64,000 nucleotides of DNA, taken from contig NC_134028.1 in assembly GCF_964204645.1 (NCBI RefSeq), forward strand, positions 16,623,653 to 16,687,652. The letters run 5' to 3'. This DNA is from Tubulanus polymorphus. Lineage: Eukaryota > Animalia > Nemertea. How positions within the stretch are numbered: the first letter of the stretch is position 1; every line of letters starts with the position of its first letter. The notes under the pieces were generated by a model, which was given only the letters and a program-made list of their open reading frames with translations, did no database searches and was not told where the DNA came from. Positions 1 to 43,681 of the stretch are shown here, piece after piece. A program made the translations under genes and the position numbers.

Positions 1-3000
1 ATCACAAAAACACCGCCAAAATTTGAGTAATAATGTTTTAGGAAAAGATTATTTTGATGATAAACCTCAAAAAGTAAAAAAACCAACTTCAAAAACTAAA
101 TCCATTTCAAATAAACCTTACATGGAAAATGTTAGAAATTATATTGATTCACTAGAAATAAAAGATACAATTGAAATTTTAGAAACATTACATAGTAAAA
201 TTGGTCCTGCAGCTATTATATTTAGATTTTTTAAAGGTACAACAATAGAAGATTATATTAAATTTAATGAAATAATAGAAAAAATACTAGATTTGATAAC
301 AGATGTTGAATATCCAAAAATTAGTATCTCTGGGAAAGTAAGTTTTATAAAGTCAGAAGAAAAAATGGATTATAATATTCAAACACACCCTGAAGAAATA
401 ATTTCAAAAACACAAATAAAAGAGAACTTAGAAAAAATATTTAATGAATTTAAACGTCATATTGAAGAAAGATATTTTGAGGGTTCTGGCTTAACATTGA
501 ATGAAATTATATATTTAGATTTAAATGTTTACAATACAAAAAGGAATAAAACATCAAAAAGTAATAAAATGTTTAAAAATGATTCAAACTTTACAACAGA
601 AAAGGATATTAAAGCATCATCTTATATTAAATTACCATTTACAACAAAAGCAGTAATAAATGTTCAAAATGAAGATAGTAAATGTTTTCTATGGTCAATT
701 ATTAGTTGTTTACACCCTACAGAAGATATGACGCATAGTTTTAGAATAACAAATTACCGGAAATATGAAACATTATATAAAATTGATCAATATCCAGTAA
801 CTATAAAAATGATTCCTAAAATAGAAAAAGTTAATAATTTAAAAATAAATGTATTTGAATTAATGCAATTACCAAAGACAAAAGGTGAAAATATTAAAGA
901 TTATACATTGGAAGCTTTATATTTAACAGAATATTATGATGATGAAAATGCTATAGATTTGTTATACTACAACAAAGATGAAAACTAAACTAACATTATA
1001 TGTGGTTAAAACAAATTGATTTATTCTTTAGAACAGAAAGTGATCACCATAATAAAATTTATCTACGTAGAAAATGTTTATCTAAATTTATGACTGAGAA
1101 TACATTATTAAAACATAAAGAATTATGTGATAATAAAGATTTTTGAAAATTAATAATGCCAACAGAAAAAGATTATAAATTGAAATTTACTAATCATAAA
1201 TTTAAGAATATTGTTCCATTTGTAATTTATGGGGATTTTGAATCGTCGAATAAAGAATTAACTGATCAAGATAGAAAAGAAATATATAACAAAAAGCAAT
1301 TATTAAAATCAATGGATAAAGGAAATGAATTAAATGAAGACACAATACAAGACCCACCAATTATAAATACAATTAAAAAAGTTCATCAAAGAGCTGCTGC
1401 TTATGGAATTTATATAAAATCAAATTATCCTGAATTATATGAAAGTCAATATATTTCTTTTAGAGGTGAAAATGTAGTTAATGATTTTTGTGATAAAATG
1501 ATTGAATTAGAAAGTGATTTTGCAAAATTATTAAACAAAAATAAAAGAATAATTATGACAAAAGAAGATGAAATTGATTTTAATTATGCAACTCATTGTT
1601 GTTAATGTGAAAAACGTTTTTATTCATTTGATAAAAAAGTTAGAGATCATGATCATTTAAATTCAAAATATCGTGGAGCTGCTCATGAAGATTGCAATTT
1701 ACAAGCTAAGAAAGTTAATTTCGTACCAATATTATTTCATAATTTATCAGGCTATGATACCCATCTATTTATAAAACAATTATCGGGAAAATTGGGAGCA
1801 ATTAATCAAGAAATAGAAGAATATAATGCTATGAATGGTGTAAATGTAAGAAAATATGATTTTAAACTATTAGCTAAAACATCTGAAAATTATATTTCAT
1901 TTCAATTTGGTTGCACAATGAACAAGATTTTAAATTATTGAGATATAAAGGCGCAATTCCTTATTCATTTTATAAAACACACAATGATTTTAATGTAACA
2001 GAATTATTAAAAGATCAATTTTATGATCAATTAAAAGAGGAGTATGTGAAAGACGAATTGTTTAATAGAACATTAAATATTTGGAACCATTTAAAGATGA
2101 AAAATCATGGCGAATTAGTTGATTTATATTTAAAATCAGATGTTATGATATTGACTGACATATTTGAAAAATTTAGAGAAGTTAATTTGAATCATTTTAA
2201 TGTTGATCCTTGTTATTGCTACTCTAGTCCTGGTTTAACCTGGCAATGTGGTTTAAAATATACAAATGTAGAATTAGATTTATTAAAAGAACCAGATATG
2301 GTTTTATTATTTGAAAAATCAATTAGAGGTGGAATTAGTGGTGTTATGGGAGATAGATATTTTAAAGCAAATGATGAATATTAATTATTATATATTGACG
2401 CCAATAATTTATATGGCTGGGCAATGATGCAACCTCAACCATATAAAAATTTTATATTAACAGAAGTTGAAAATGATGATAAAACTAATTGGGAAAGCGC
2501 AATTATATGAGTTTAGAAGATGAAGCACCAATTGGTTATTTCTTTGTAGTTGATTTAGAATATCCTGAAAATATAAAGTTTAAAACAAGAAACCTTATTG
2601 CCCAGAACATTTAACTGTAGATGATAGTTATTTAAGTGAATACCAGAAGAAAATAAAACCGAAAGATCATGTTTTTACAGAAAAATTAATACTTACTCAA
2701 AATAATAAATACAATTATATTGTTCATTATAGAATGTTAAAACTTTATCTAAAACAAGGAATGAAATTAAAGAAAGTACATAGATATATTGAATTTAATC
2801 AATCGAAGTGGTTAGAAAAATATATAGATTTCAATACTCAACAGAGAACCATATCAAAAACAGATTTTGAAAAAGATTTCTTCAAATTAATGAATAATAG
2901 TTTTTATGGTAAAACATGTGAAAATATTAGAAATAGAAATCATATTGAATAAGTAAATAATTCTGAACGATTAAGACATTTACAATCAAGTCCTAGACAT

Positions 3001-4708
3001 TTAGGAAATAAAAGATTTGAAGATTATTTAACAGCAGTTAAATTAAAAAGAACGTCAATGAAATTTAATAAACCTATATTTATTGGTTCAACTGTTTTAG
3101 AAGTATCAAAATTATTAATGTATGATTTTTATTATAATGTTTTACAACCACTTTTTGGGGAAAAGCATATTGAAATATTATTATTTTGATTCTGTTACAG
3201 CTGACACCCCAATATTATTAAAATGTAATGATAAAATATTGATAAGAAGAATTTCAGAAATAATTCCAAAACAAAATGAATGTTATATTTCATATGGTGA
3301 AAAAGAATTAATACAAATAAATGGATTAATGGATGTTTGGACAAGAAATGGATGGAAAAAATTAAAGAATATTATTAGACATAAAACAAATAAGAAAATC
3401 TATAGAGTTAGAACTAACTTAGGATTTGTAGATGTTACAGAAGATCATAGTTTAATTAAACGAAATGGTGATGAAATAAAACCAATTGATATAAAAATTG
3501 GAGATGAATTATTACATAAAAGATTTTTCCAAAGAATGAATCATATGTCATTCGATGAAATTATTGATAATATTTATAATATCGAACCCGAAACATTAGA
3601 AGAAAAAGAATATTTTATCAAAGGATTTTTCATGGGTGATGGTTCAGCAGGTGTGTATAATTATGTTTGGGGTAATAAATATTGTTGGTATTTATGCAAT
3701 CAAGACTTAAAATTATTAGAAAGAATTAAGAAATTCTGTGAAGAAGTTTATTCACATAAAACATTTAGAATCATGGATCATATGAAATCAACAGCAGTTT
3801 ATAGAATACTTGTAAATAACCCTAAAGATTTTGCTATAAAATATAATGATGAATTCTATATTCATGCAATAGTGAAAAGTAATACTTCAACTAAAGAAAA
3901 GATAGTTCCAGATTATGTATTAAATGCAAAAAATAATTTAAGAAAATGGTTCTTCATTGGGTTCTATGCTGCAGATGGTTCAAAAAGTTCCAAAAACCGC
4001 AAAACGATATCTTTAGCTCAAAAAGGAAAAGTTGCTATATCAGGATTGAATATATTATGCAATTCATTAGGTTTTAATATGAATATTGGATTGATTAAAT
4101 CTAAACCAAATTGCTTTAATTCAAGCCATGTAGAAAATGAGTTAACAGAAGAAGTTACAGATTTATTTGAAATATATAACCCAACAGATTATGTTTATGA
4201 TTTATCAACTGAAGATGGTACATTTAACTGTGGATTTCCATTAATAGCCAAAAATACGGACGCCTACATACTAAAAATCAAGACAAATGACATAACAAAA
4301 GACTTAAAAACATTAAAACATCATTTTGATTTTAGCAATTATCCCAAAGATCATGAACTATTTAGCAATGATAATAAAAAGATTCCTGGTAAGTTTAAAG
4401 ATGAATTAGGGGGTGATGAAATGATTGAATTTGTTGGGATAAGAAGTAAAATGTATAGTTACAGAACAAAAGATCATGAAGCTAAAAAGTTAAAAGGAAC
4501 AACAAAACATGTGGTTGATAAACATATAGAATTTCAAGATTATATAAAGTGTTTATATAACTCATTGTAATGAAACACAAAATGAATTGTTTAAGATCAG
4601 AAGATCACGAGATGTACATTAATGAAGTTGAAAAAACTAGTTTAAATCCATTTGATGTTAAAAGACATTTCAGATGATGGTATAAAAACATTACCTTATG
4701 GCCATTAA
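1..4708 (+). pseudogene. Protein-primed family B DNA polymerase of copy A, intein-containing, with multiple stops and frameshifts
   Basis: Fragments carry DSKCFLWSI, YGDFES, RDHDH, YIDANNLYGWAM, KLMNNSFYGK and YFD..TD motifs, collinear with the intact 1344-aa pPolB at 45406-49440. Confidence 0.93.
3191..4255 (+). mobile_element. Intein (355 aa) with LAGLIDADG homing endonuclease, inserted in the pPolB catalytic motif (YFD|intein|TD)
   Basis: Starts SVTADTP; block B VTEDHSL; two LAGLIDADG helices (FIKGFFMGDGS, FFIGFYAADGS); block F YVYDLST; ends AKN before Thr. Absent from the YFDTDS motif of copies B and C. Confidence 0.95.
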
Positions 4709-5691
4709 AACAGAAAATCAATATCATCATACTCGAAATCACTATTGGCTTCTTCATTTTCATTTAATTGTTCTTGTATAATTTGTTTAGGTTCTTCCAT
4801 TTCATTTTTCTCATTTAAATAACGTGTTATATTATTCCACATTTCATCTCGCTCTCTTTGTTTCTTTTTGTTTGTTAATTCATCAAATGGAATTATAATA
4901 TCTATGTTTAAATAATTTACAATCTTATTTAAAAAGAATTCATAATTTATTGAATCTGTTATTCTATTTTCCAAATGATACATTAATATTTGTTTAGATA
5001 TTTTTTTTTTATTTTCCATATCTTCTTCTGTTAATTTAGGTTTTTCATAATAATCGTTAAATAATAAATACAAATACATTTTCTTTTGTTTTGTGTTAAA
5101 TGTTGACTGAATAATTGTTTTTATAATATCTATTTTAGTTATTTCACCATTTTTATTTTCTATTATTTTCATTTTTTCAAGCCATTGCATATATTCTGGT
5201 GTATGATCTTCTATAGAAAATATTTTAAAAATTTCATCTAGATAATTTAATTTTGGATCTATGAGAAAATTTCTAGTTTTTTCTTCACCCCATAAATTCT
5301 TTTGCCATCCACAATCAACACAAAATAACACAGTACCTTCTTGTCTTAAGGTCGCATAACTACATTGTGGACATTTTCGTTTATAATTTATTGGTAATAG
5401 ATCTTCATTAAGCTCCAGGAACCAGTTCCACAGTTGTGAGTTAGAGTTAACTCTCAGTTAAAGTCAGTTCATTTTCAATGTTTTAACCCAGGGTCAAATC
5501 TTAACTCAGAACTGTGGAACTGGACCCTGGTATTTTCTTACGTTTTCTTTATGTTTTATTGTTCTATTATGTAGATTTGAATTACTTGTTGTAATAATCA
5601 ATTTACAATATTTACAATAATATGTTTTTCTTGTTAATTCATTATATTGTTTTTCTAACTTTTCAACTGTTTCTTTATTATCTGGTATCAT
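4705..5691 (-). pseudogene. Zinc-finger/Cys-rich hypothetical gene of copy A, interrupted by a MITE
   Basis: ORFs 5506-5691 (CKYC..H..H) and 4705-5331 (CVDC) flank an inverted-repeat insertion at 5415-5530. Confidence 0.55.
5415..5530. mobile_element. MITE-like short inverted-repeat element
   Basis: CCAGGAACCAGTTCCACAGTTGTGAGTTA at the left is an imperfect reverse complement of TAACTCAGAACTGTGGAACTGGACCCTGG at the right; more GC-rich than its flanks. Confidence 0.7.
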
Positions 5692-6213: not shown

Positions 6214-6971
6214 ATGGTAGAATTAAAAGAATACAGAATATTTGTTGATTCTAGAAAACTTACAAATTATAAATCACATAATTTAATAGTTCAATTAGAT
6301 AGAGAATTTAAGAATTGTGTTGATTTAAAATTAGTAAATATAAGTTTATGTAACTCATTTTACAATATATCGGATAAAAGTCTAGAACATTTAATTTTTT
6401 CAATCTTTTACAAAAAAGGAATAAATGGTTTTTTATATATTTAAAACCAGGATTATATAATTTAGATACATTAGCACAAGAAATTAATAGAAAAGCTCGA
6501 GCTAAATTAGGAAGTGATTCCGGATTTAGTATTAGAATTTTAAAAAGTGATAGTTCTAATAAAATAAAGATTAGGTTAGCTAATGACGAACAATTTAAAT
6601 TTACAGTAAGAAAACCTTTAGGTAAACTGTTAGGAATTAACCCAGATATTGTTACAGCATACGCAGAAGGTAAATCAAACTTAATACCTTTTACACATTT
6701 TTATATTTATTGCAATTTAATTGACCCAACAAAAACATTTGAAGCAACTAAAGATACAATTTGTAATTCTAGTATATTAAATATTTTACCATTAAAAAAT
6801 GTTAAACAATTTGGAACGCAAATAAATTATAATTTAACTGAATGTGATTTTAAACCTTGTATTCCACATTTCAATAATTTTAAATTAGAAATAAGAAATC
6901 ATAATGGTTATTTAATTGATTTGAATAACTTTCCTGTAATTTATGAATTAGTTATAAGATGTAAAGAGTAA
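6214..6971 (+). pseudogene. Minor capsid (penton-like) protein of copy A, frameshifted
   Basis: Homologous to the intact ORF at 44262-45020; frameshift near 6410-6440. Confidence 0.8.
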
Positions 6972-6987
6972 TTTTTTCACTATATAA

Positions 6988-7344
6988 ATGATTATAACTG
7001 TTGGACCGAGTATATGTTTTGGATTTGATTTTAAACGTGAGAAAGAAATGAAATTTAACATTAATGATGTAATTACACATATCAAAAATATTGCATTTTC
7101 TAATGAAACAACATTTGAGTATGAAACAACAATAGATAAAGAAACTTTAAATGTAGAAACGATTACTAATTTAATTAGAGAATCTTTAAGATTTTATGAA
7201 TTAGATGAAGATTTTATTATCGATGATATTAAAAAAATAATAATTGAAATATATACAAATGAAACTAGTAATGAAATAAATGTTGAATTAATCATAAATA
7301 AGTTTACTAAATATTTTGAAGTAATTTTTTTGATTAATAAATGA
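6988..7344 (+). CDS. Polinton hypothetical protein (homolog of 43904-44245)
   Basis: Shared ITVGPSICFGFDFK N-terminus; syntenic. Confidence 0.75.
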   Translation: MIITVGPSICFGFDFKREKEMKFNINDVITHIKNIAFSNETTFEYETTIDKETLNVETITNLIRESLRFYELDEDFIIDDIKKIIIEIYTNETSNEINVELIINKFTKYFEVIFLINK

Positions 7345-7562
7345 GTGATAATAAGTGGATAATAACTGGAATATATAATGACGCATTACTATCAGTTGGA
7401 ACTGTTGGTTATTCAATGGTATTAAAAAAAGTATTCAAAATGGGAAGTGTTAATGTTGATAGATTTGATATAAATGATATCTTAAAATTAACATTAGCAG
7501 TTACTTTATCTAATTTAACTATTGATTATTTAGAAAAACAAAAATATATTCCCCCCATATAA
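7341..7562 (+). CDS. Small hydrophobic Polinton protein (73 aa)
   Basis: Near-identical to 28525-28746 and 43682-43903; two hydrophobic segments. Confidence 0.8.
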   Translation: MSDNKWIITGIYNDALLSVGTVGYSMVLKKVFKMGSVNVDRFDINDILKLTLAVTLSNLTIDYLEKQKYIPPI

Positions 7563-7586
7563 ATGCATAATTTTTTTGCTAAATAA

Positions 7587-8009
7587 ATGGCTTCTGCAAT
7601 TATAACTATTATAGGATCGGCAATTGTTAACGCTTTAGCATTTACTGGTGGCGGTTATTTATTTAAGCATATTGATAAAAATAGTTCATTAGGAGAACAA
7701 AGAAGACATAATTTAGCATTAGAGAAATATAATAAAGCAGCAGAAGAATACAGAGAAAAACGACAAAACTATATGGATTATATTAACAAGGAATTATATG
7801 ATCAGAAGATTTCACATAGAGATTTTCAATCAGTTGATGATGCAATGAGTTTATATAACGCAGTAACCAATAAAGAAAAATTACATCTATACAAACCTAA
7901 ATTATCAGATTATCATACCCCAAGTAAAGAACAACAGAAATATGAAATAATTTGGATTTTAGGTGGAACAGTTATTGTTATATTTGTAGCATATAAATTT
8001 ACTAATTAG
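7587..8009 (+). CDS. Polinton membrane-associated protein (140 aa)
   Basis: Hydrophobic N- and C-termini with a central coiled coil; near-identical to 43234-43656. Confidence 0.8.
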   Translation: MASAIITIIGSAIVNALAFTGGGYLFKHIDKNSSLGEQRRHNLALEKYNKAAEEYREKRQNYMDYINKELYDQKISHRDFQSVDDAMSLYNAVTNKEKLHLYKPKLSDYHTPSKEQQKYEIIWILGGTVIVIFVAYKFTN

Positions 8010-8028
8010 TAATTTTTTTTCTAAATAA

Positions 8029-8463
8029 ATGGAAGATAAAGTTGATAGTATTGATATTATTCCTCATGATATAAATAAAAATAAATTAAAAATATATTTA
8101 GAAAAACAAATATTAGAATTTGAAAGTGACTTAAAGATAAAAAAGAAAAAATATTTAAAAAGTAAAATTATATGTTATCTTATTATTAGTGGTTCGGTTA
8201 CAATTAGTTCTGTTATAACATTTCTAGCAATATTCAGTCCATTAACACCTTTAGCTATATCAATTGGTGTATTAGGATTAAGTTCAAGTGTTTTAACTGG
8301 TATAAGTTCAAAATTAAATATAAAATGTAATAAAGAAAAAATTAAAACTAATATAAAAGAAATTAATAAATTGAAGAATACACTAGATTATATAATAAGT
8401 TTAAATGGTCATATAACAGTTGAAGAACAAGATAAATTATTAAAAGAATTAATAACTTATTAA
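8029..8463 (+). CDS. Polinton two-TM protein (144 aa)
   Basis: Hydrophobic hairpin flanked by coiled coils; near-identical to 27595-28029 and 42780-43214. Confidence 0.8.
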   Translation: MEDKVDSIDIIPHDINKNKLKIYLEKQILEFESDLKIKKKKYLKSKIICYLIISGSVTISSVITFLAIFSPLTPLAISIGVLGLSSSVLTGISSKLNIKCNKEKIKTNIKEINKLKNTLDYIISLNGHITVEEQDKLLKELITY

Positions 8464-8479
8464 TTTTTTAATTAAATAA

Positions 8480-9866
8480 ATGGTAGATGGTTTTCCAAAA
8501 GCTTTCCAGTATAGTAAATCAATTAAATATAATATTCCAGCAATAGATTTTAATAAAGATATCACATATAGAAATGAAGTTTTAGATTCATTAACTAATT
8601 TAGAAATTTATGTTACTGAAAATAATAATTTTAATGCAAAGATGGAAAATATATTTCATGTATATTTAATTAATTTAAAAAAATTGAAAGATGAAAAACA
8701 ATGGTTATTAAAATCTAATATGAAGTATTGGCAGAACCAATTAAATTTTGCTGTTTATTGTGCAACAACAGGATGTGGAATTAGCTGGAATGATCATTTG
8801 AATAATTCTAAATATAAATTAATTCAAAGTTTATTTAGATTTCATACATACTTTCAAATCAGAATAATATTAAATGAATTAGAGTGCGCTTTACCAGGAT
8901 CTAGGTATTTTAAAGAATTAGATAATAATATTAATTTATCAAAGTTTTATAAAATTTGTAATGAATTTAATATAGATATAAATAATTCCGATTTTAGAAC
9001 AAAAATTGGAACAATAAGATCACTTCCTTGCCCTAAAAAGATTGCAGAATATTGTGCACTTCCCATACCATCTAATAGTTTTTCATAATATCTATAGTAA
9101 TAAATTAGGTTATGGTAAAATAGAAACTAAGGATTTAGAAACATTAAATTTCAATAAATTACCGACATTTTATGATAATTTAAAACAAGAAAACAATAAT
9201 GGTTGGGTTTATTTCATTTTAGAAAATAATGAAGGTTTTACAAAATCAGGTATACAAAGAATAAATCAATCTATTAGAACTTATTTGATATGTATTTTAG
9301 GTGCGCAAGTTGAAACAAGATCCCAAATAATTGAAAATTTAAATACATCATTTGATGCACAGAAACAATTCAAAGTATTATTTGAAGATTCTATTCATAA
9401 TGATAAAAATAGATCGATTCCAGAAAACATTGTAAGATATCAAAATTATTTAGATAAATCTCGTGTAAGACTAAATTATTGTATAGGCCCTAATCTATTA
9501 ATTATTTCTAATGATTTAGTACTAAAGATGGGAAACATAATTGGTTACAATAATCTAATTAAAACTGCAACAATAAATAATTCATTTGGATTAAATGATA
9601 TAAATAAAAAGATTATTACCGCTCCAAAATTAATGGAAGGTGAAAAAAATAAAAAACATATTCAATCAACAGAAACTAAAACTAAGAATATTAAATTAAA
9701 TAATGATTCTAAACCGGATTATAATACATCAGAAAATATTAAAACTGATAATATTCAACATGATATAATTAAAACTGATAATGATAATTAATCCCATGAA
9801 AATACTAAATAAGCTTTAACTTGTATAGGAATTGTTATAGGAGGAATATTGTATTTTAAATTTTAA
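8480..9866 (+). pseudogene. Conserved Polinton protein (WQNQLNFAVYCATTGCG family), disrupted
   Basis: Two overlapping ORFs plus downstream stops; homologous to the intact ORF at 41375-42763. Confidence 0.8.
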
Positions 9867-9882
9867 TTTTTTTATTATATAA

Positions 9883-11330
9883 ATGGATGTAGAAGGTGGA
9901 GAAGATATTGGAATGGATAATTTTGATGAACCTGGCATAACTGATGAACAACAACCTGATTTTAGTGAAACAAGTTATAATGATGGTAATGAGCCAGGAT
10001 ATAATAATAATAATATAAATATGCCTGATTATATTAAAAATGCAGAATCACAATTAAATCCTGAAAATTTAGATCCAGATTTAGTAAAAAAAAGATTTAG
10101 ATAATTTAAACAAAATAGAGAAATTAGAATATATAATTGAAAATTCTAAACTTCACATAAATGATGAAGACGTTGGACCATTAGCAGATAAATTAAGATT
10201 TTTAGATAATGGTAAATGTTATTATCGTTTGAAAGGTGATTATTATATTGATATCACTAATCAAAGGACAAAACTAAAAAAAATATTAGCGGAATCAACT
10301 TTGAAAAATTTAGAAACATTTAGAATTAAGAGAATAAGTAATAGTTATGAAATAACTGATGTTACACAAAAAGAAATAGATGATAATATAGACGTATTTA
10401 AACAAAGAATTAATGAATTATTTGAAATAATCAAAAAGAAATCAGAAACAGAAACAACTTCTGAACAGAATATAACTTCCAAAACTAGTAAACTTAAATC
10501 AAATAAAGTTCCAATTGAAAAGCTTTTACCGAATGGATTAATTGATGCAACAGATCAAGAATTAGAAGATTTAGATAATATATTTTCTGTTGAAGCAATT
10601 AGAGAAATTAAAAGTATAAGACTTGCATCTGATAAAATTGCACATGATAAAAGTATAAGAGATTTTAAAATTAGAACTTTAGAAAAAGAATTAACTGATA
10701 AAAATAAAGAAATAGAACAATTAAAGTCTGATCTTGATCGTCAAGTAATTGATGAAATAGAGTAAAGGCAAAAAGAATTACGATTAGAAAAAGAAATTAA
10801 TAATTTAAAAGATAATTTAGAAGTACAGAAAGAAGAAATTCAATTATTATTAAAATCATATGATTATAATATTAATAGATTAAAAGTTATTTTTAAAGAT
10901 TTGTTGATAAAACCAAATTCTGAAATATCATTAAAAGATAGAATAAAGTTATTATTTAAATTAGAAGGAATAACAATTCTTTCAATTCTAACAGCTGTAA
11001 CTATGTTATTTACAACAATTGGTTTAGCAATATCAAATGCTTTAAAATCTACTCCTACTCCAAATAAACAATTCTATACAAGATAAAGTTAAAGATGGTT
11101 TAAAGAAATTAGCAAAATATTTATGGGAACTATCTACAAAATCTGCTGCAGCTTTACCAGGAATTATTGCATCAACTGTTGGTTTTATATTGAAATCTGC
11201 TGGGAATATTCTTAACTTTGCTGCTGAAAATATTATTTTATTTTTAATTACAGTTGTAAGTGCTATTATTTTTGGGTTAGTGAATATGATATCAGAAAGA
11301 TATCAAGAAAAAATAATAAAAAATAAATAA
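9883..11330 (+). pseudogene. Acidic/coiled-coil protein with C-terminal membrane domain (copy A), disrupted
   Basis: MDVEGGED start; C-terminal LKDRIKLLFKLEGITILSILTAV segment matches 39668-40513. Confidence 0.75.
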
Positions 11331-24471: not shown

Positions 24472-26174
24472 TTACTTTATATTTTTTGATATCATGTTTA
24501 CTAACCCAAAAATAATAGCACTTACAACTGTAATTAAAAATAAAATAATATGTTCAGCAGCAAAGTTAATAATGTTTCCTGCAGATTTCAATATAAAACC
24601 AACAATTGATGCAATAACTCCAGGTAAAGCTGCAGCAGATTTTTTAGATAGTTCCCATAAATATTTTGCTAATTTCTTTAAACCATCCTTAACTTTATCT
24701 TGTATAGAATTATTATCTGGGGGTTTATCTGGTTTATTGGGAGTGGGAGTAGATTTCAAAGCATTTGATATAGCTAAACCAATTGTTGTAAATAACATAG
24801 TTACAGCTGTTAGAATTGAAAGAACTGTTATTCCTTCTAATTTAAATAATAACTTTATTCTATCTTTCAATGATATTTCAGAATCTGGTTTCATCAACAA
24901 AACTTTAAAAATAACTTTTAATTTTTTAATATGATTAAGATCATATGATTTTAATAATATATCTCTTTCTTCTTTTTGTAATTTTATGTTATATTCTAAA
25001 TCATCTATTTCTTTTACTAAAGCTAACTTTCTGCTTTCATAATCAGCTTCATAAACTACTTGATGATCTCTATTTAATTCTAATTGTTTTAATTCTTCAT
25101 CTGCATTAACTAATTCTTTTTCTAACATGGTTATTTTAGAAAATCTCATCTTAATATTAGCAATTTCATCAGCTGATACTTGTATACCTTTAATTTCTCT
25201 ACGTATTTGTTCAGGAAATGTTTCTAATTCTTCATCAGTTAAATTAAGTAATCCTTTTTCTAGTAAATATTGCAGTCGATTTATTCCAGTTTCAGAACCA
25301 GATGTATCTGATATACTATTCATCAGTTCTTCTGAATCTCTTAATCTATCAATTGTTTTTCTAATTGTAATTGACTTGAATAATTATCAATTGGTTGAGT
25401 GTCTCTTCTCGATGTTTCGGGTGTTGAAGATCTTAATCTATCTAATCGATTTCTATTCTCTTCCATTTCTGGATCAAAATCAGTAGGATTTGGATTTGGA
25501 TTTTTAAATGGTGAATATTTGTTTATATCAATATTATGAATTGGTTCTTCTTCATTTATTCTATCGAGTGCATTCCATATAATTCTGAGAAATTCTCTAC
25601 CACCTTTTGAACCTTCAATTGTAGATAATGCTCGCATTTCAGGTTCAAAAATATTTTCTTGACCAATTTTAGATAATTGAATTGTTACAATATTCCTATT
25701 TAAATCAAGATTATAATACCATGAATCATTTTTAAATTCTAAATTATTCATGAAAAATGGGTCATCTTTTAAAATTTGTTCTACAACACCTTCTGAACCA
25801 ATTTCATGTATTACAACTGTTGGTAATAATTCGTTAACAATTGTATCTGTTACTCTAGATTTCATTTTAAATAATTCCATAGGTTTATCAGGATATTTTT
25901 CTTGTTGTTTTTCTAATAGTTCCATAAATTCTTTTCGTTCTCTTCTAGTTGAAATTCTACCAATTTCAGGAGCTTTTAAATATTTATTTAATTTTTCACG
26001 TAATTCGGGATCATCATCATCATCATAATCATCATCTTCACCTAAATTAATATTATATTCTGGCTCATTACCGTCATTAAAACTTGTTTCACTAAAATCA
26101 GGTTGTTGTTCATCACTTATACCGGGTTCATCTAAAGGATCCAATGGAATATCTTCTCCACCTTCTACATCCAT
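24472..26174 (-). CDS. Acidic domain (25341-26174) plus coiled-coil/membrane domain (24472-25323), separated by a frameshift
   Basis: Homologous to 39668-41359; 1-nt offset near 25350. Confidence 0.7.
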
Positions 26175-26190
26175 TTATATAATAAAAAAA

Positions 26191-27578
26191 TTAAAATTTA
26201 AAATATAATATTCCTCCTATAACAATTCCTATACAGGTTATAGCTAATTTAGTATTTTCATGGGATTTATTATTATCATTTAGTTTAATTATATCATATT
26301 GAATAATATCAGTTTTTATATCTTCTGATGTATTGTAATCTTTTATTTTAGAATCATTATTCAATTTAATATTTTTAGTTTTAGTTTCTGTTGATTGAAT
26401 GTGTTTTTTATTTTTTTCACCTTCCATTAATTTTGGAGCAGTAATAATCTTTTTATTTATATCATTCAATCCAAATGAATTATTTATTGTTGCAGTTTTA
26501 ATTAGATTATTATTACCAATTATGTTTCCCATCTTTAATACTAGATCATTAGAAATAATAAATAGATTAGGGCCTATACAATAATTTAATCTAATATGTG
26601 ATTTATCTAAATAATTTTGATATCTTATAATGTTTTCTGGAATCGATCTATTTTTATCATTATGAATTGAATCTTCAAATAAAACTTTAAATTGTTTTTG
26701 TGTATCGAATGATGTATTCAAATTTCCAATTATTGGGGATCTTGTTTCAACTTGTGCACCTAAAATACATATCAAATAAGTTCTAATAGATTGATTTATT
26801 CTTTGTATACCTGATTTAGTAAAACCTTCACTATTTTCTAAAATAAAATAAACCCAACCATTATTGTTTTCTTGTTTTAAATTATCATAAAATTTCGGTA
26901 ATTTATTGAAATTTAATGTTTCTAAATCCTTTGTTTCTATTTTACCATAACCTAATTTATTATTATAGATATTATAAAAACTATTAGATGGTATGGGAAG
27001 TGCACAATATTCTGCAATCTTTTTAGGGCAAGGAAGTGATCTTATTGTTCCAATTTTTGTTCTAAAATCAGAATTATTTATATCTATATTAAATTCATTA
27101 CAAATTTTATAAAACTTTGATAAATTAATATTATTATCTAATTCTTTAAAATATCTAGATCCTGGTAAAGCACACTCAATTCATTTAATATTATTCTGAT
27201 TTGAAAGTATGTATGAAATCTAAATAAACTTTGAATTAATTTATATTTAGAATTATTCAAATGATCATTCCAACTAATTCCACAACCTGTTGTTGCACAA
27301 TAAACAGCAAAATTTAATTGATTCTGCCAATACTTCATATTAGATTTTAATAACCATTGTTTTTCATCTTTCAATTTTTTAAAATTAATTAAATATACAT
27401 GAAATATATTTTCCATCTTTGCATTAAAATTATTAGTTTCAGTAACATAAATTTCTAAATTAGTTAATGAATCTAAAACTTCATTTCTATATGTTATATC
27501 TTTATTAAAATCTATTGCTGGAATATTATATTTAATTGATTTATTATATTGGAAAGCTTTTGGAAAACTATCTACCAT
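26191..27578 (-). pseudogene. WQNQLNFAVYCATTGCG-family protein of copy B, frameshifted
   Basis: Homolog of 41375-42763; frameshift near 27170. Confidence 0.8.
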
Positions 27579-27594
27579 TTATATAATTAAAAAA

Positions 27595-28029
27595 TTAATA
27601 ATCTATTAATTCTTTTAATAATTTATCTTGTTCTTCAACTGTTATATGGCCATTTAAACTTATTATATAATCTAGTGTATTCTTTAATTTATTAATTTCT
27701 TTTATATTAGTTTCAATTTTTTCTTTATTACTTTTTATATTTAATTTTGAACTTATACCAGTTAAAACACTTGAACTTAAACCTAACACACCAATTGATA
27801 TAGCTAAAGGCGTTAATGGGCTGAATATTGCTAGAAATGTTATTACAGAACTAATTGTAACCGAACCACTAATAATAAGATAATATATAATTTTACTTTT
27901 TAAATATTTTTTCTTTTTTATCTTTAAGTCACTTTCAAATTCTAATATTTGTTTTTCTAAATATATTTTTAATTTAGTTTTATTTATATCATGAGGAATG
28001 ATATCAATACTATCAACTTTATCTTCCAT
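27595..28029 (-). CDS. Polinton two-TM protein (144 aa)
   Basis: Near-identical to 42780-43214. Confidence 0.8.
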   Translation of the reverse strand: MEDKVDSIDIIPHDINKTKLKIYLEKQILEFESDLKIKKKKYLKSKIIYYLIISGSVTISSVITFLAIFSPLTPLAISIGVLGLSSSVLTGISSKLNIKSNKEKIETNIKEINKLKNTLDYIISLNGHITVEEQDKLLKELIDY

Positions 28030-28047
28030 TTATTTAGAAAAAAATTA

Positions 28048-28500
28048 CTAATTAGTAAATTTATATGCTACAAATATAACAATAACAGTTCCACCTAAAA
28101 TCCATATTATTTCATATTTCTATTGTTCTTTACTTGGGGTATAATAATCTGATGATTTAGGTTTGTATAGATGTAATTTTTCTTTATTGGTTACCGCGTT
28201 ATATAAACTCATTGCATCATCAACTGATTGAAAATCTCTATGTGAAATCTTCTGATCATATAATTCTTTGTTAATATAATCCATATAGTTTTGCCTCTTT
28301 TCTCTATATTCTTCTGCAGCTTTATTGTATTTCTCTAACGCTAAATTATGTCTTCTTTGTTCTCCTAATGAACTATTTTTATCAATATGTTTATTTTATT
28401 TATATTTTATTTTATATTTTATTTATAAATATCCACCACCAGTAAATGCCAAAGCGTTAACAATTGCCGATCCTATAATAGTTATAATTGCAGAAGCCAT
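28048..28500 (-). pseudogene. 140-aa membrane protein homolog of copy B, disrupted
   Basis: Matches 43234-43656 but carries an AT-rich insertion at about 28390-28425 and a premature stop. Confidence 0.75.
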
Positions 28501-28524
28501 TTATTTAGCAAAAATATTATGCAT

Positions 28525-28746
28525 TTATATGGGAGGAATATATTTTTGTTTTTCTAAATAATCAATTGTTAAATTAGATAAAGTAACTGCTAACGTTAAT
28601 TTTAAAATATCATTTATATCAAATCTATCAACATTAACACTTCCCATTTTGAATACTTTTTTTAATACCATTGAATAACCAAAAGTTCCAACTGATAGTA
28701 ATGCGCCATTATATAATCCAGTTATTATCCACTTATTATCACTCAT
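28525..28746 (-). CDS. Small hydrophobic Polinton protein (73 aa)
   Basis: Near-identical to 43682-43903. Confidence 0.8.
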   Translation of the reverse strand: MSDNKWIITGLYNGALLSVGTFGYSMVLKKVFKMGSVNVDRFDINDILKLTLAVTLSNLTIDYLEKQKYIPPI

Positions 28747-29088
28747 TTATTTATCCAAAAAATTACTATCATCAAAATATTTAGTTAACTTATTTATGAT
28801 TAATTCATCATTTATTTCATTACTACTTTGATGATTATCATATATTTTGGATAATATGTTTTTGATATCTTCAATAATTCCATCTTCATTTAATTCATAA
28901 TATTCTAAAGGTGTTTTAATTAAATCAATTACTTTTTCGATATTATAATTTTCTTTATCAATCATTGATGCATTGTTAAATGATTTACTTTTTATATCAG
29001 TAATTACATCATTTAGTTTAATTCTCATTTCTTTACCATGTTTAAAATCAAACCCAAAACATATACTCGGTCCAACAGTTATATTCAT
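28747..29088 (-). CDS. Polinton hypothetical protein (113 aa)
   Basis: Near-identical to 43904-44245. Confidence 0.75.
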   Translation of the reverse strand: MNITVGPSICFGFDFKHGKEMRIKLNDVITDIKSKSFNNASMIDKENYNIEKVIDLIKTPLEYYELNEDGIIEDIKNILSKIYDNHQSSNEINDELIINKLTKYFDDSNFLDK

Positions 29089-29105
29089 TTATATAGTGAA
29101 AAAAA

Positions 29106-29866
29106 TTACTCTCTACATCTTACAACTAATTCATAAATTACGGGGAAATTATTTAAATCAATTAAGTATCCATTGTGATTTCTAATTTCTAATCTAAAAT
29201 TATTAAAACGAGGAATGCATGGTTTGAAATCACATTCTGTTAAATTATAATTTATTTGCGTTCCAAATTCTTTAACATTCTTCAATGGTAAAATGTTTAG
29301 TAAACCAGAATTACAAGTTATATCTTTAGTTGCTTCGAATGTTTTTGTAGGATCGATTAAATTGCAATAAATATAAAAATGTGTGTAAGGTATTAAGTTT
29401 GGTGTAGTAGCGTCAATATTTGTAAAAGATCTATCTGGAAGAATTCCTAACAGTTTAGCTATAGGTTTTTTTACCATAAATTTATGTTTTTCACTATTAG
29501 ACAACCTTATCTTTATTCTATCAGAACTCTCACTTTTAAAAATCTAATACTAAACCCAGAACTACTACCTAATTTGTGCCAGGCTTTTCTATTAATGTCT
29601 TGTGCTAATGTATCTAAATTATATAACCCCGGTTTTAAATATATATAGGCCCATTCATTTTTATTTTTATTAAAAATTAAAAAAGCTCTATGTTCAATAG
29701 TTTTATTCGATATATTATAAAAAGAATTACATAAACTTATATTAACTAATTTTAAATCTACACAATTCTTAAATTCTCTATCTAATTGTACTAGTAAATT
29801 ATGTGATTTATAATTAGTAAGTCTTCTAGAATCAACAAATATTCTGTATTCTTTTAATTCTACCAT
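29106..29866 (-). pseudogene. Minor capsid (penton-like) protein of copy B, frameshifted
   Basis: Two ORF halves match 44262-45020. Confidence 0.8.
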
Positions 29867-30263: not shown

Positions 30264-30905
30264 TTAACACGTTAGAATTCTTTTCATTATCTCGTTCTCT
30301 TTTGTTTCTTCTCTTTTAAATTTTAAGTATTCATCTAAATTGCAACCGTAAGCAACTGTATGAATTCCATCATCTAAAATATATCTTTTATCATCAAATG
30401 GGTTTAGACTTATCTTTTCAATTTCTTCAATAAACATTTCATGATCTTCAGATCTTAAACATCTCATCTTATGTTTTCTAACTTCTTAATTGAATATACA
30501 ATTGATTTAATCTTTGAAATGAATATTCTTTTCTACTACACTTTTGGTTATTCCTTTTAACTTTTTAGCTTCATGTTCTTTAGTTTTATATGAATACATT
30601 TTAGATCTAATACCAATGAATTCAATCATTTCTTCACCACCTAATTCATCTTTGAATTTACCGGGAACTTTTTGATTATCATTGCTAAACAATTCATGAT
30701 TTTTAGGATAGTTACTAAAATCAAAATGATGTTTTAATGTTTTTAAATCATCAGTTATGTTATCAGTTTTTATCTTTAATATGTAAGAATCTGTATCAAA
30801 ATATAATATTTCTATGTGTTTTTCTCCAAAAAGTGGTTGTAATACATTATAATAGAATTCATACATTAGTAATTTTGATAATTCTAAAACTGAAGCGCCA
30901 ACATA
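30264..30905 (-). pseudogene. pPolB of copy B, 3' part (downstream of the copy C insertion)
   Basis: Resumes GASVLELSKLLMYEFYY...YFDTDSY where the 5' part stops at KPIYV; internal stops near 30490-30510. Confidence 0.92.
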
Positions 30906-31262
30906 AGTAATAGGGATAATAGGCTTTCAGGCCAAAGGTCGAACGGTCGAGCTCGTAAAAAATGAAAATAATAATAATTTACAGTTGAATTAGTCGCGCA
31001 CACTCCTAATTCAACTGTAAATTATTATTATTTTCATTTTTTACTCACTCGCCCCTTCAACCTTTGACCAGAAAGCCTATTATCCCTATTACTCTTAAAA
31101 TATTCACATATATGAATAAAATATAAATCATTGAACTTCTAAAATCAATTTTAATAAAAAATATAGTATTAAAATGGAAGCAAATAAGTACTACTGCCCA
31201 ACATGTAATATCGATATAGATAAATCCCAAAAAGCAAGACACAATAAAACTAGAACACATTT
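30906..31262 (+). repeat. Left TIR of copy C; its first 188 bp (30906-31093) form a hairpin
   Basis: Reverse complement of 49352-49708; self-complementary arms around a TCGCGCACACTC loop. Confidence 0.95.
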
Positions 31263-32804: not shown

Positions 32805-33470
32805 ATGGAACCAGAACAACCACAAATTATCAATATTACAAATAACACTGGCGTTATAAACATATATTACAAAAAGTGTTCTAAATGTGAATTAGATAAA
32901 TCATTAACAGAATTTAGTAAGCGTAAGATTAGCAAAGATGGTTTTCAATATTACTGTAAAAATTGCATTAAACTATATACCAAACAATATCGAGAAGATA
33001 ATAGAGAATCTTATAATGATTATATGACAGAATATATGAGAGAAAGATATCAAACAGATCTTAATTTTAGATTGAAACAATGTTTACGGTCTAGATTAAC
33101 ACAATTATTTAACAAAGAAACATATTCAGAAACACTATCTAATCTATTGGGTTGTTCAGATGAATTTCTCAAATCATGGATAATATATCAATTCGACGAT
33201 AAAATGAATATAGATAATTATGGTGAATACTTTCATATTGATCACGTGTTACCAATATCTAAATTTAACATGAATGATGAATACAATAAAAAACTTATTT
33301 GGAGTTGGAAAAATTTAAGGCCTTTAGAAAAGAAGGAAAACATAATTAAATCTAATAAACTAGATATGAAATTATATTTAGATCAACTGGATAAAGCAAA
33401 GACATTTGTTGAATTATGGAATAGTATTTCACAGAATCAACCGCATTCTGAGGTTTTGATCAGTGGTTAG
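32805..33470 (+). CDS. HNH endonuclease with an N-terminal Cys4 zinc ribbon
   Basis: CSKC..CKNC zinc module; HIDHVLP...NLRPL....N..KSNK HNH core. Confidence 0.85.
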   Translation: MEPEQPQIINITNNTGVINIYYKKCSKCELDKSLTEFSKRKISKDGFQYYCKNCIKLYTKQYREDNRESYNDYMTEYMRERYQTDLNFRLKQCLRSRLTQLFNKETYSETLSNLLGCSDEFLKSWIIYQFDDKMNIDNYGEYFHIDHVLPISKFNMNDEYNKKLIWSWKNLRPLEKKENIIKSNKLDMKLYLDQLDKAKTFVELWNSISQNQPHSEVLISG

Positions 33471-35313: not shown

Positions 35314-36399
35314 ATGAAAAAAGAACAATATTTAAGAGATTTATATTATAACCCAGAAAGTGAAGTATCATATTCTAACGTTTCAGAATTATGGAATAAA
35401 ATTAAATCCGATAATAGTGATATAAAATATAGTGAATTAAAATCATGGTTACAAAATCAACCCACATATCAAATTCATAAAAAGATGGATAAAAAATATT
35501 TAACAAGAAAAGTAATGGTTTCATATATCGATCAACAATGGCAAGCTGATTTAATTGACATGAAAAACTTAGAAGAATACAACAAAGGATATTTCTGGAT
35601 ATTAAATGTTATAGACATATTCAGTCGATACGCATGGAGTATCCCGATTAAAAATAAAACTGGTATAGAAGTTACAAATGCTTTTAAATCTATATTTAAA
35701 GAAGCTATCCCAGATAAAATACAATTTGATGAAGGTAAGGAATTTTATAACAAACATTTTAAAAAACTATTAACTGATAACGATGTAGAATATTTTTCAA
35801 CACATTCAGATAAAAAAGCATCCGTTATAGAAAGATTTAATAAAACATTGAAAACTAGAATGTGGAAATATTTCACCGCTAATGAAACATATAAATATGT
35901 CGATGTGTTAGATGATTTAGTTAAAGGTTATAATAATTCTAAACATAGTTCTATAAATATGAAACCTATACAAGCTAGAAAAGAAGAAAATTCAGAAATA
36001 GTTTGGAATAATTTATATGGTGCGTTTGTTACACATGATTTTGGAGAACCTAAATTTAAAATAGGACAACATGTTAGAATTTCTAAATATAGAAAAACAT
36101 TTTATAAAGGTTATACCCCTAATTTTACTGAAGAAATATTTAAAATTAAAAAGATAATATTAACTAAACCATTTGTTTATAAATTAGAAGATCTAAAAGA
36201 TGAAGAAATATTAGGTTATTTTTATGAACAAGAATTATCACTTGTACCAAATCCAGATGAAATAGAATACAAAATAGAAAAAGTATTGAAAACTAAAACT
36301 CTTAAAGGAAAAAAGTATTCTTTGGTGAAATATAAAGGATATGATGATAAATTCAATGAATGGATTTTATCTAGTAAAATTAAAAGAATAAATGAATAA
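35314..36399 (+). CDS. Retroviral-type (rve) integrase with C-terminal chromodomain
   Basis: DDE triad QADLID / QFDEGKEF / IERFNKTLK; chromodomain YKIEKVLK...LVKYKGYDDKFNEWI. Confidence 0.95.
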   Translation: MKKEQYLRDLYYNPESEVSYSNVSELWNKIKSDNSDIKYSELKSWLQNQPTYQIHKKMDKKYLTRKVMVSYIDQQWQADLIDMKNLEEYNKGYFWILNVIDIFSRYAWSIPIKNKTGIEVTNAFKSIFKEAIPDKIQFDEGKEFYNKHFKKLLTDNDVEYFSTHSDKKASVIERFNKTLKTRMWKYFTANETYKYVDVLDDLVKGYNNSKHSSINMKPIQARKEENSEIVWNNLYGAFVTHDFGEPKFKIGQHVRISKYRKTFYKGYTPNFTEEIFKIKKIILTKPFVYKLEDLKDEEILGYFYEQELSLVPNPDEIEYKIEKVLKTKTLKGKKYSLVKYKGYDDKFNEWILSSKIKRINE

Positions 36400-37006
36400 A
36401 GATTTATTTATATTTGAACCACATAATATGTTAGTTACTGGAGTTACAAATTGTGGTAAAACACACTTCATATTATATTTATTAGAAACTATTTATAAAA
36501 ATCATTTTGATAATATAATATTATTCTGCCCAACTTATGAAATGAATGAAACGTATAATAGAGATATAGTTTTTAAAGATAAAAAGTTTATTATATTAAA
36601 TTCTAAAACAGTGAAAGATAATTTAGATAATTGTATAAAAATTGCAATAGATATTTATAAAGGATCTAATACATTATTTATTATTGATGATTGCGCAAAT
36701 TTACATGATTCAAAAGTTAGAGAAAGTGAGTTATGTTATTTAGCTTTCTCTGGTAGACATTTTGGGATAACAACATGGGTTTTAAATCAGAAATATAATT
36801 CAATTGTGAAAGACTTTAGAGAGAATATAAGATTTCTAGTTTTATTTTATAACAAAGATAAAAAATCTATGCAACAATCATTGGAAGAAAATCAAATTAT
36901 ACCTACTGAATTACATGATGAATATATGAATAAATTAAAGAATAATAAAGGTTCCAAATTACTTATGAGATTACAATTTCCATATGAATATAAATTTATA
37001 AAATAA
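36392..37006 (+). CDS. A32/FtsK-like genome packaging ATPase
   Basis: GVTNCGKT, FIIDD, SGRHFGI and LNQ motifs. Confidence 0.92.
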   Translation: MNKDLFIFEPHNMLVTGVTNCGKTHFILYLLETIYKNHFDNIILFCPTYEMNETYNRDIVFKDKKFIILNSKTVKDNLDNCIKIAIDIYKGSNTLFIIDDCANLHDSKVRESELCYLAFSGRHFGITTWVLNQKYNSIVKDFRENIRFLVLFYNKDKKSMQQSLEENQIIPTELHDEYMNKLKNNKGSKLLMRLQFPYEYKFIK

Positions 37007-38399: not shown

Positions 38400-39647
38400 T
38401 TAATACATAACACTATCTAATTGTGAATTTACAATATTTAATTGCGCGTCAGATATAATATAAATGTGCATTTTAAAATTTTTGATTCCCTTTTTCTTTG
38501 TCATGAATAATTGTATTCCATCTTTTGTATTTTGTAATTTTTTCCCAGAACCATGTAATAAGTTATCTTCAGTTGTTCTAAAATCTAACCATAATGCGTA
38601 TTTATTACCGGTATAATAATCAATTTGATTAATGTTACAATTTTCAAATGATTTTATTTTTTCATTCATAAAATGTTTTTTAATTTCTACCCATTGATCA
38701 ATCATTCTCATTCCTTGACAGAATATTTTATTCGCTATACCTTCGATAGTTATTTCTACTTTTGTTATTTCAGGATTATAATAATTATCAACATTTATTG
38801 CACCATTAGTATACGTTCCAATGGTAAAAAATATTAATATACCTTTAATAGATCTTCTAGGAAAGTTAATATTCTCATTAATTATTTCATCATTTGCATT
38901 AATAGTTACAGTTTTAAATTTATCAATATAATCATATAATAATGAAAACCCTTGATTGTATTGAGTTTGAATAATACTTGAAATATTTTCATCAGTTACT
39001 GTATCATATTCTAAACATATATTCGATAATTTATAACTCATATCTTTATTAACGCTAGATAATACAATTTCATTTACAGGAGCAAATGTTATCTCAAATA
39101 TAACGTCTTCTTGAATTGCGTATTTATATAAAGGTGCATTATTATTTATCAATTCAAAGTCTAATGGAATTTTATATTTACTTCCATATATACTTTTTAT
39201 CAATTTATCTACATCATTTGTTAATATTGCGCTATTAGCTTCTGATCTTAATTTATTTTGGTTTTCTGATTGAATACCCTGAAATATCATATTATTTCTA
39301 TTTTCTTTAGTTAACCATAAATCTTTATAATGCATAAATAAATTATAATCATCTAATGAGAAAACTGTTTCTGGACCAATCTTTATTGTTAACTTTTTAA
39401 TCAAATATCTTCCAACATTATCAACGACATAATTATTATTATTACCGATTACTTTTATATCGGCTGATAAATAAATACTGTTTGGAACATAAAAAGTATT
39501 TTGTGTTAATCTAGGAATTCTAACGTATAAAGTTTCATCGGGATTAATATTTGAAGGGTTATGAGTAATTATATGATGTGATCTTTCTGCTTTAATAGCA
39601 TTAGATATTCTATGATTCTTAGAAGGATTGATATAACTCCCACTCAT
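38400..39647 (-). CDS. Major capsid protein (probable double jelly-roll)
   Basis: 415 aa, beta-rich, conserved between copies, in Polinton context; C-terminal LWLDFR...MHIYIISDAQLNI pattern typical of Polinton MCPs. Confidence 0.8.
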   Translation of the reverse strand: MSGSYINPSKNHRISNAIKAERSHHIITHNPSNINPDETLYVRIPRLTQNTFYVPNSIYLSADIKVIGNNNNYVVDNVGRYLIKKLTIKIGPETVFSLDDYNLFMHYKDLWLTKENRNNMIFQGIQSENQNKLRSEANSAILTNDVDKLIKSIYGSKYKIPLDFELINNNAPLYKYAIQEDVIFEITFAPVNEIVLSSVNKDMSYKLSNICLEYDTVTDENISSIIQTQYNQGFSLLYDYIDKFKTVTINANDEIINENINFPRRSIKGILIFFTIGTYTNGAINVDNYYNPEITKVEITIEGIANKIFCQGMRMIDQWVEIKKHFMNEKIKSFENCNINQIDYYTGNKYALWLDFRTTEDNLLHGSGKKLQNTKDGIQLFMTKKKGIKNFKMHIYIISDAQLNIVNSQLDSVMY

Positions 39648-41359: not shown

Positions 41360-41374
41360 TTACATAATAAAAAA

Positions 41375-42763: not shown

Positions 42764-42779
42764 TTATATAATTAAAAAA

Positions 42780-43214
42780 TTAATAATTTATTAATTCTTT
42801 TAATAATTTATCTTGTTCTTCAACTGTTATATGACCATTTAAACTTATTATATAATCTAGTGTGTTCTTTAATTTATTAATTTCTTTTATATTAGTTTTA
42901 ATTTTTTCTTTATTACTTTTTATATTTAATTTTGAACTTATACCAGTTAAAACACTTGAACTTAATCCTAATACACCAATTGATATAGCTAATGGTGTTA
43001 ATGGACTGAATATTGCTAGAAATGTTATTACAGAACTAATTGTAACCGAACCACTTATAATCAAATAATATATAATTTTACTTTTTAAATATTTTTTCTT
43101 TTTTATCTTTAAGTCACTTTCAAATTCTAATATTTGTTTTTCTAAATATCTTTTTAATTTAGTTTTATTTATATCATGAGGAATAATATCAATACTATCA
43201 ACTTTATCTTCCAT
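42780..43214 (-). CDS. Polinton two-TM protein (144 aa)
   Basis: Intact; conserved in three copies. Confidence 0.85.
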   Translation of the reverse strand: MEDKVDSIDIIPHDINKTKLKRYLEKQILEFESDLKIKKKKYLKSKIIYYLIISGSVTISSVITFLAIFSPLTPLAISIGVLGLSSSVLTGISSKLNIKSNKEKIKTNIKEINKLKNTLDYIISLNGHITVEEQDKLLKELINY

Positions 43215-43233
43215 TTATTTAGAATAAAAATTA

Positions 43234-43656: not shown

Positions 43657-43681
43657 TTATTTAGCAAAAAAAATTATGTAT

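Follow-up and report, generated by a model that had tools for sequence, protein, structure and literature searches.

The window analyzed here, 64,000 nucleotides of the genome of the nemertean Tubulanus polymorphus (contig NC_134028.1, positions 16,623,653 to 16,687,652, forward strand), carries an intein-like open frame inside the polymerase gene of a Polinton, which raises the question of how such an element came to lie in an animal genome and whether elements of its kind still move. A preliminary description, made from the letters alone, had proposed an intact intein that passed from a DNA-primed giant-virus PolB to a protein-primed PolB (pPolB) while both replicated in one cell. We place a probability of about 0.74 on the following reading: the feature is a pol-c LAGLIDADG intein in a broken Polinton pPolB, and it belongs to a Polinton-wide clade that likely stems from one old entry from the inteins of large-virus DNA-primed PolBs and is likely still homing.

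Translation, profiles, an AlphaFold model, and Foldseek searches all bear on the identity of the insertion. Positions 3191 to 4255 (forward strand) translate without a stop into 355 residues, Ser1 through Lys354-Asn355, lying between YFD (3182 to 3190) and TD of the polymerase, which is the pol-c site. An N-terminal HINT (splicing) region with a beta-strand fold covers approximately residues 1 to 110 (3191 to 3520), matches TIGR01445, the profile of intein N-terminal regions, over residues 2 to 88 (29.4 bits against a cutoff of 24.5), and contains T83 and H86 in VTEDH (T83-x-x-H86; 3437 to 3448). A two-domain LAGLIDADG endonuclease follows at approximately residues 136 to 313 (3596 to 4129), as indicated by PF14528, secondary structure, and matches to I-DmoI and PI-PkoII. 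In the predicted structure, its two LAGLIDADG helices lie within two alpha-beta-beta-alpha-beta-beta domains and end in acidic residues, D150 of GFFMGD150G (3638 to 3640) and D262 of GFYAAD262G (3974 to 3976). Translation and model place the C-terminal HINT region, YVYDL...FNCGFPLIAKN, at 4151 to 4255; it includes YVYD337L and K354-N355 and is directly followed by Thr+1 of the C-extein (4256 to 4258). Every element named in the preliminary description, from Ser1 through VTEDH, the two LAGLIDADG motifs, and VYDL to the terminal KN|T, was recovered in this 355-residue insertion.

The residues of class 1 splicing are present (Ser1, T83/H86, D337, N355, and Thr+1) except for the penultimate His, whose place is taken by Lys354. 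Some active inteins can do without a His at this position. Among aligned relatives, penultimate Lys is found in all 13 inteins of the viral group that is sister to the Polinton inteins and in 10 of 19 other viral inteins, and His in 6 of 10 Polinton inteins. S1, T83, and H86 are invariant in all 48 aligned inteins. Pfam profiles gave LAGLIDADG_3 above the cutoff (E value of 1.4e-8) and Intein_splicing below it (4.3e-7). The AlphaFold model was of high confidence (pLDDT of 89.7, pTM of 0.91), and its top Foldseek match was 7qsu (E value of 3e-18), followed by PI-PkoII, PI-PfuI, PI-SceI, and I-DmoI; the endonuclease part matched I-DmoI at a TM score of 0.72 on the target. Among viral models, the best structural matches were PolB inteins. 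The feature is thus a real pol-c intein with HINT and LAGLIDADG endonuclease motifs, and it is an in-frame insertion at a site that is empty in a paralogue within the window and in homologues. We infer from sequence and model that the Polinton inteins probably splice themselves, and from sequence that their endonucleases probably cleave.

The host gene is another matter. A tblastn comparison with the intact paralogue traced the Polinton pPolB over positions 2 to 4668 (forward strand; start beyond the window edge) as a pseudogene with 4 stops (1144, 1603, 2382, and 2950) and about 6 frame changes (near 970 to 994, 1887 to 1914, 2495 to 2507, 2596, 3181 to 3186, and 4561 to 4567); the intein is immediately preceded by one of these frame changes. 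Because the host gene is broken, the word "intact" in the preliminary description fits the open frame of the intein only; the window copy is a fossil and cannot make the fusion protein itself. We considered selective preservation of the intein in this dead copy and rejected it, since an unbroken intein at the observed density of breaks has a probability of ~0.05 to 0.075, compatible with chance.

The intact intein-free paralogue (1,344 amino acids; 45406 to 49440, reverse strand) was recognized by homology, its close homologues carrying PF03175. It runs uninterrupted through the empty pol-c site as HIEILYFD-TDSY, and its residues 1168 to 1271 match the C-extein at 80%; it and the flanks of the database matches agree with the site named in the preliminary description. 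Residues 588 to 636 of this protein (45409 to 49440, reverse strand) form an HNH-type Endonuclease VII domain that is common to many homologues. Beside it lies a tandem second pPolB copy (49649 to 53116, reverse strand), 93% identical and ending at residue 1133, shortly before motif C. Self-comparison located a second intein-free remnant, a pPolB C terminus, at 30267 to 30926 (reverse strand); relative to the intein-bearing flank, its 9 nucleotides upstream of the site are identical and 4 of 15 downstream differ. Positions 30906 to 31262 are a 100% inverted match of 49352 to 49708. Recent local conversion within the window was also considered and rejected, as the segments next to the site match the intact paralogue (46/60 and 50/60) about as well as the rest of the gene does.

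The Polinton hallmarks pPolB, RVE integrase, and A32 ATPase are all present in the window; Pfam profiles place the integrase (with chromodomain; rve E value of 2.5e-9) and A32-like packaging ATPase (Pox_A32 E value of 6.9e-12) at 35314 to 37006 (forward strand). The window pPolB itself missed PF03175, which its homologues P0002 and P0003 match. A candidate for the double jelly-roll major capsid protein at 38400 to 39647 had no Pfam or PDB sequence match, and its single-sequence model reached a pLDDT of 31. A further Polinton frame (32805 to 33470, forward strand; 221 amino acids) has zinc-binding motifs and a weak HNH match (E value of 0.06) and is possibly a free-standing endonuclease. By self-blastn, the gene block beside the intein-bearing pPolB (6214 to 10011, forward strand) is 91 to 92% identical to blocks of intein-free elements at 26046 to 29866 and 41326 to 45020, whereas pPolB positions 19 to 3190 and 45937 to 49192 are only 73 to 78% identical, a contrast that suggests swapping of replication modules. 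The intein-bearing element breaks off near 11360, and its other end lies beyond the window. Within this element, ~5416 to 5527 shows ~2,000-fold read depth and many back-jumps of 37 to 40 bases, apparently a small inverted-repeat or satellite insert. Overall, the window consists of several rearranged Polinton copies between other mobile-element debris, and a search for host genes within it found none. The debris includes a decayed LTR element (58787 to 60486, reverse strand) in which a chromodomain, pieces resembling an integrase, and part of an F-type envelope protein (Baculo_F E value of 4e-5, below the cutoff) can be made out, as well as fragments without a Pfam match that we take, from a motif, to be Bel/Pao-like. 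Positions 62250 to 63760 consist of imperfect tandem repeats of 24 bases and have a strong GC skew.

Sequencing reads of the same species bear on the other copies. In run X6, which has the same species label but comes from a different study than X1 to X4, depth was 236 and 156 over the intein, 253 and 267 over the flanks, and 21 in the lowest bin of a 16-kb stretch; intein depth is therefore 7 to 11 times the lowest bin, a ratio that understates the number of copies if the sequence in that bin also occurs more than once. Several intein-bearing copies are thus present in this species. Most same-species reads lack the four host-gene breaks that lie within 2400 to 5200, and the empty pol-c site was seen in 36 reads. 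Judging by depth, most close copies of the window copy's subfamily carry the intein. From read depth and the reads without breaks, we conclude that a largely intein-bearing subfamily has left the window copy as one of its fossils. The marine-metagenome run X5 yielded scattered short pieces only and was left out.

The closest listed matches of the window intein are other Polinton inteins, at ~61 to 62% and then 42 to 51% identity. Among the best 120 of 363 longer matches, 10 pPolBs have the same insertion: P0002 (~61 to 62%), P0003 (50%), P0004 to P0007, P0009, P0011, P0012, and P0093. Almost all other matches in this set were DNA-primed PolBs (28 to 41%), together with three topoisomerase II proteins, an ADP-ribosylglycohydrolase, and a Chloropicon primus protein named as Pol delta; fragments of up to 74% identity occur among 43 shorter matches. 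The intein is a minority state, since only 2 of the best 120 pPolB homologues of the intact paralogue carry it. The 136 new proteins of a 50%-representative search held no further pPolB-hosted full-length intein, and a metagenome scan with P0003 returned no relative. A junction-pattern scan returned one locus, L054 (2 to 4168, reverse strand), a pPolB with an intein of the Polinton-clade type and a frame change in the endonuclease region. In scans of IMG/VR (37 and 16 loci), the extracted inteins grouped with DNA-primed PolBs and none fell in the Polinton clade; 14 of the 16 loci found with the FN[CST]GFP junction pattern were giant-virus MAGs. Phage records gave two weak matches (25 to 27%).

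The kinship to giant-virus PolB inteins proposed at the outset was borne out, with identities of 35 to 43% to giant-virus-type PolB inteins versus 22 to 25% to archaeal pol-c inteins. The special closeness to Mimivirus was not: Megavirus courdo11 PolB matched at 26%, compared with 29 to 31% for the top two viral-library matches, in a comparison that included no Mimivirus sequence. Inteins of the pol-c family also sit at look-alike D|TD-type sites in topoisomerase II (P0008, P0106, P0112, P0352, and P0424) and an ADP-ribosylglycohydrolase (P0038), showing that the family jumps to new genes. Another is carried by the Chloropicon primus protein (P0108), which is named DNA polymerase delta and is a cellular replicative polymerase of a eukaryote, a green alga.

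All 13 full-length pPolB inteins fell in one branch (SH-aLRT of 100) in trees of 134 and 81 rows; two long-branched sequences (L043 and L047) were dropped after the 134-row tree, of which 81 rows were kept. A tree of 48 rows, comprising 42 of the 81 and 6 archaeal pol-c inteins as the outgroup, likewise united 10 of 10 Polinton inteins with support of 100/100. The maximum-likelihood (ML) tree nests this clade among viral DNA-primed PolB inteins (branches of 88/91 and 89/97), and its sister (81/84) is a group sharing the C-terminal motif G-[FYTS]-[PA]-[LI]. Three T4-gp43-type phage polymerases belong to the sister group, P0017 having been checked and P0016 and P0018 placed by grouping. These three and P0328 are T4/RB69 gp43-type polymerases whose inteins group with those of giant viruses, which suggests phage-NCLDV exchange. 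In an approximately unbiased (AU) test, forcing together all non-Polinton viral inteins, meaning those of any DNA-primed PolB host with phage gp43-type hosts included, was not rejected (P = 0.28). A viral-to-Polinton direction is therefore likely, not proven; on sequence grounds, we favor an origin of the Polinton inteins from PolB inteins of large DNA viruses.

The same Polinton clade might instead have another origin, either as sister of all large-virus pol-c inteins, drawn from an old pool, or through a T4-like phage, or through a pPolB virus that the sampling missed; an origin of this kind would be silent on giant-virus co-infection. The AU result just given leaves room for Polinton inteins outside the rest. 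Two further observations suit such an origin, the phage gp43-type hosts within the sister group and P0197, whose intein is distant (25%) and whose C-extein resembles a pPolB on inspection, with no pPolB profile match. We nevertheless regard such an origin as unlikely, given that the ML tree takes three branches in succession to set the clade within the inteins of viral DNA-primed PolBs, that its C-terminal GFP-type motif is common to one viral subgroup only, and that the 50%-representative search added no pPolB-hosted full-length intein.

We then compared inteins with their exteins, as the preliminary description had suggested. Across 36 pairs of 9 elements, the two identities track each other (Pearson coefficient of 0.94, Spearman coefficient of 0.65, mean difference of 1.4 points), which means that inteins and polymerases have for the most part diverged together. 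This, on sequence evidence, points to an old residence of inteins in pPolBs; the stem of the clade measures 0.45 to 0.6 substitutions per site. A widespread, vertically inherited Polinton clade unrelated to NCLDV inteins had been named as the outcome that would speak against a giant-virus source. A widespread and largely co-diverging Polinton clade is what we found, but one that is not unrelated to NCLDV inteins. The intein of P0006 departs from the general pattern, with 43 to 49% intein identity versus 19 to 23% extein identity to the other hosts of the clade, and this contrast points to a jump between pPolB classes. It groups with the window intein (97/87), and an AU test placing it outside the rest of the clade was not rejected (P = 0.24).

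If a working element behaves as its motifs predict, the intein would be translated within the pPolB, and Ser1 (aided by T83/H86), Thr+1, and Asn355 would bring about excision that restores the catalytic YxD-TD motif, making the Polinton dependent on exact splicing. Once released, the endonuclease would cleave pPolB genes that lack an intein at their YxD|TD codons. Repair of the break on an intein-bearing template would then insert the intein together with some flanking extein, whether among integrated copies or among co-replicating genomes.

Presence and absence of the intein are patchy. On a 51-row pPolB tree, intein state needs 13 changes (mean of 13.2 when shuffled), at least 7 of which are forced by starred branches, and the nearest extein of each of 15 intein-bearing rows is an intein-free or same-cluster copy. 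The P0003 family (136 members, 15 listed) occurs in 1,537- and 1,191-residue forms. Between 7 intein-plus and 6 intein-free proteins of this family, all 10 fixed differences in 1,191 columns lie at residues 1035 to 1085, a tract that contains the insertion site (1041|1042). P0129 and P0134, for example, are 99.8% identical over residues 1 to 1030, 80% identical in the tract, and 97% identical after it; the 60-residue window for this tract was chosen after seeing the data. Three outgroups are ~95% identical overall, two of which keep the intein-free tract at 95% and the third at 87%, and the sharing of the intein-free tract therefore polarizes the intein-plus tract as a recent gain. A search for the donor of the converted tract found none, the best outside match being 72%. 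The tract points to the pattern expected of homing that carries flanks in from a diverged donor, and together with the patchy distribution and the jump suggested by P0006, it makes homing in related families likely on sequence evidence.

A second alternative holds that the intein splices and no longer homes, with presence and absence arising from precise loss and ordinary recombination between Polinton families that swap modules. The replication-module contrast in the window would suit this account, as would module swapping reported for nematode Polintons in the available text of PMC10748475. So would the endonuclease-region frame change of L054 and the pair P0139 (intein-plus) and P0142 (intein-free), which are 99.8% identical with identical flanks, so that direction cannot be polarized. 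Against it stand the sole recombinant tract of the P0003 family, which is short, contains the site, and is polarized as a gain, and the retention of the catalytic D150 in 10 of 10 Polinton inteins. Variation within the species is also skewed to synonymous changes: of 15 listed variant rows in the intein (40 of 422 rows are shown), 11 fall on third codon positions and 9 leave the amino acid unchanged, versus 19% expected, an expectation that ignores transition bias. We consider a loss of homing improbable.

The start codons of the Polinton genes bear on where such exchange could have taken place. The sequence TAAAT(G) is the late initiator of poxviruses. In one element of the window, TAAATG marks 9 of 12 ATG-started genes, many of them behind a T-run ~10 bases upstream; over all copies (5696 to 53116), which are not independent, the count is 20 of 26 ATG-started Polinton ORFs. 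Background frequencies were 55 of 728 for ATGs and 6 of 79 for short ORFs (P = 1e-8). Depletion of TTTTTNT was weak (6 versus 10.0 expected; 32 of 500 shuffles as low). The starts fit a life cycle in which these Polintons replicate alongside a helper virus in the cytoplasm, a setting in which inteins could pass from one to the other, and from them we infer a probable helper dependence; Polinton-like viruses (PLVs) associated with entomopoxviruses are described in the available text of PMC11296320. Giant-virus loci of the intein's sister group showed TAAATG at 8 of 103 ORFs, with no enrichment, and the present presumed helper is therefore probably not of the donor lineage. Independently of the tree, the starts also fit the co-replication in one cell that was first proposed, with a cytoplasmic DNA virus as partner. 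One can go further and speculate that this group of animal Polintons lives, much as virophages do, as parasites on large DNA viruses of the cytoplasm, and that a virus-derived intein acts as an active endonuclease drive among their germline copies, the first self-splicing, homing intein inside animal genomes. We offer this tentatively and think it somewhat more apt to prove wrong than right.

If a giant virus had recently passed its intein straight to this single element, that would account for identities of 37 to 43% to giant-virus-type inteins and for the TAAATG starts. Such a transfer is very improbable given closer Polinton relatives at 62 to 74%, the absence of a GC shift between the intein (25.5%) and the host gene (23 to 27%), and the rejection (AU test, P = 4e-114) of a topology grouping the window intein with its viral sister group apart from other Polinton inteins. 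What stands of the proposed move from giant virus to pPolB is the nesting in the ML tree, with a likely direction (AU test, P = 0.28); capture by the window element itself does not stand. An assembly artefact or contaminating viral contig can practically be dismissed, for although no listed read piece spans the whole stretch, runs from two studies with the same species label cover the intein and its flanks, an independent contig (X2, 2919 to 3324) bridges the N-terminal junction, the copy shows decay and lies amid the debris of LTR elements, and the same architecture recurs in many other assemblies.

We return to the Polinton-wide clade of likely old viral derivation, whose members are of a known kind, pol-c inteins, and occupy a class of host gene and a setting that are new for it. 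Searches of freely accessible full-text papers listed no description of an intein in a Polinton or other protein-primed PolB, and the family is apparently undescribed. The main text of PMC8502044, on Polintons/Mavericks (adintoviruses), does not mention an intein, nor does the available main text of PMC11296320. PMC5784728, in its available part, describes metazoan genomes as without inteins and lists NCLDV PolB inteins, iridoviruses included, so inteins of animal-infecting viruses were already known. Relative to the absence reported there, a clade of complete inteins rides in Polintons at several copies per genome, and the pol-c allele is extended from DNA-primed to protein-primed polymerases. 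The clade bears the mark of genes passing between Polintons and large DNA viruses, which matters for the question whether the Polintons of animals are viruses that depend on a helper. With filled and empty alleles that are almost identical and a conversion tract that can be measured, homing becomes accessible to direct test in a eukaryote with many copies, and the family supplies predicted new LAGLIDADG nucleases and Ser/Thr inteins.

The nearest known systems are the pol-c inteins of NCLDVs (Mimivirus R322, an uncultured phycodnavirus, and giant-virus MAGs). The available text of PMC549080 defines the pol-c site and gives the Mimivirus R322 intein as 351 amino acids at YGD|TDS, and the window intein shares with this group the site, a similar length (351 versus 355 amino acids in the window), Ser1, the terminal Asn, Thr+1, the block-B Thr/His, and the LAGLIDADG motifs. 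Unlike them, it is hosted by the protein-primed PolB of an integrating Polinton, and the Polinton inteins form their own clade, whose targets occur many times over on the chromosomes of a single genome. Archaeal pol-c inteins, in Promethearchaeota/DPANN MAG loci (L055 to L065) and as PI-PkoII and PI-PfuI, share insertion site and fold but are 22 to 25% identical, longer (394 to 420 amino acids), and in cellular hosts. Endonuclease domains inside Polinton pPolBs are also known as HNH and VSR insertions from PMC10748475, whose available main text holds no intein, HINT, or LAGLIDADG; nuclease insertions of this kind have been speculated to stem from inteins (PMC11071308, citing PMC10748475, in the text available). 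The window feature differs from the insertions described there in being a complete HINT and LAGLIDADG intein in polymerase motif C. The element around it resembles Polintons/Mavericks (adintoviruses) and, as far as the available text of PMC11296320 describes them, the entomopoxvirus-associated PLVs in its pPolB, RVE integrase, A32 ATPase, and mosaic replication modules, and it resembles the latter also in a possible dependence on a poxvirus-type helper.
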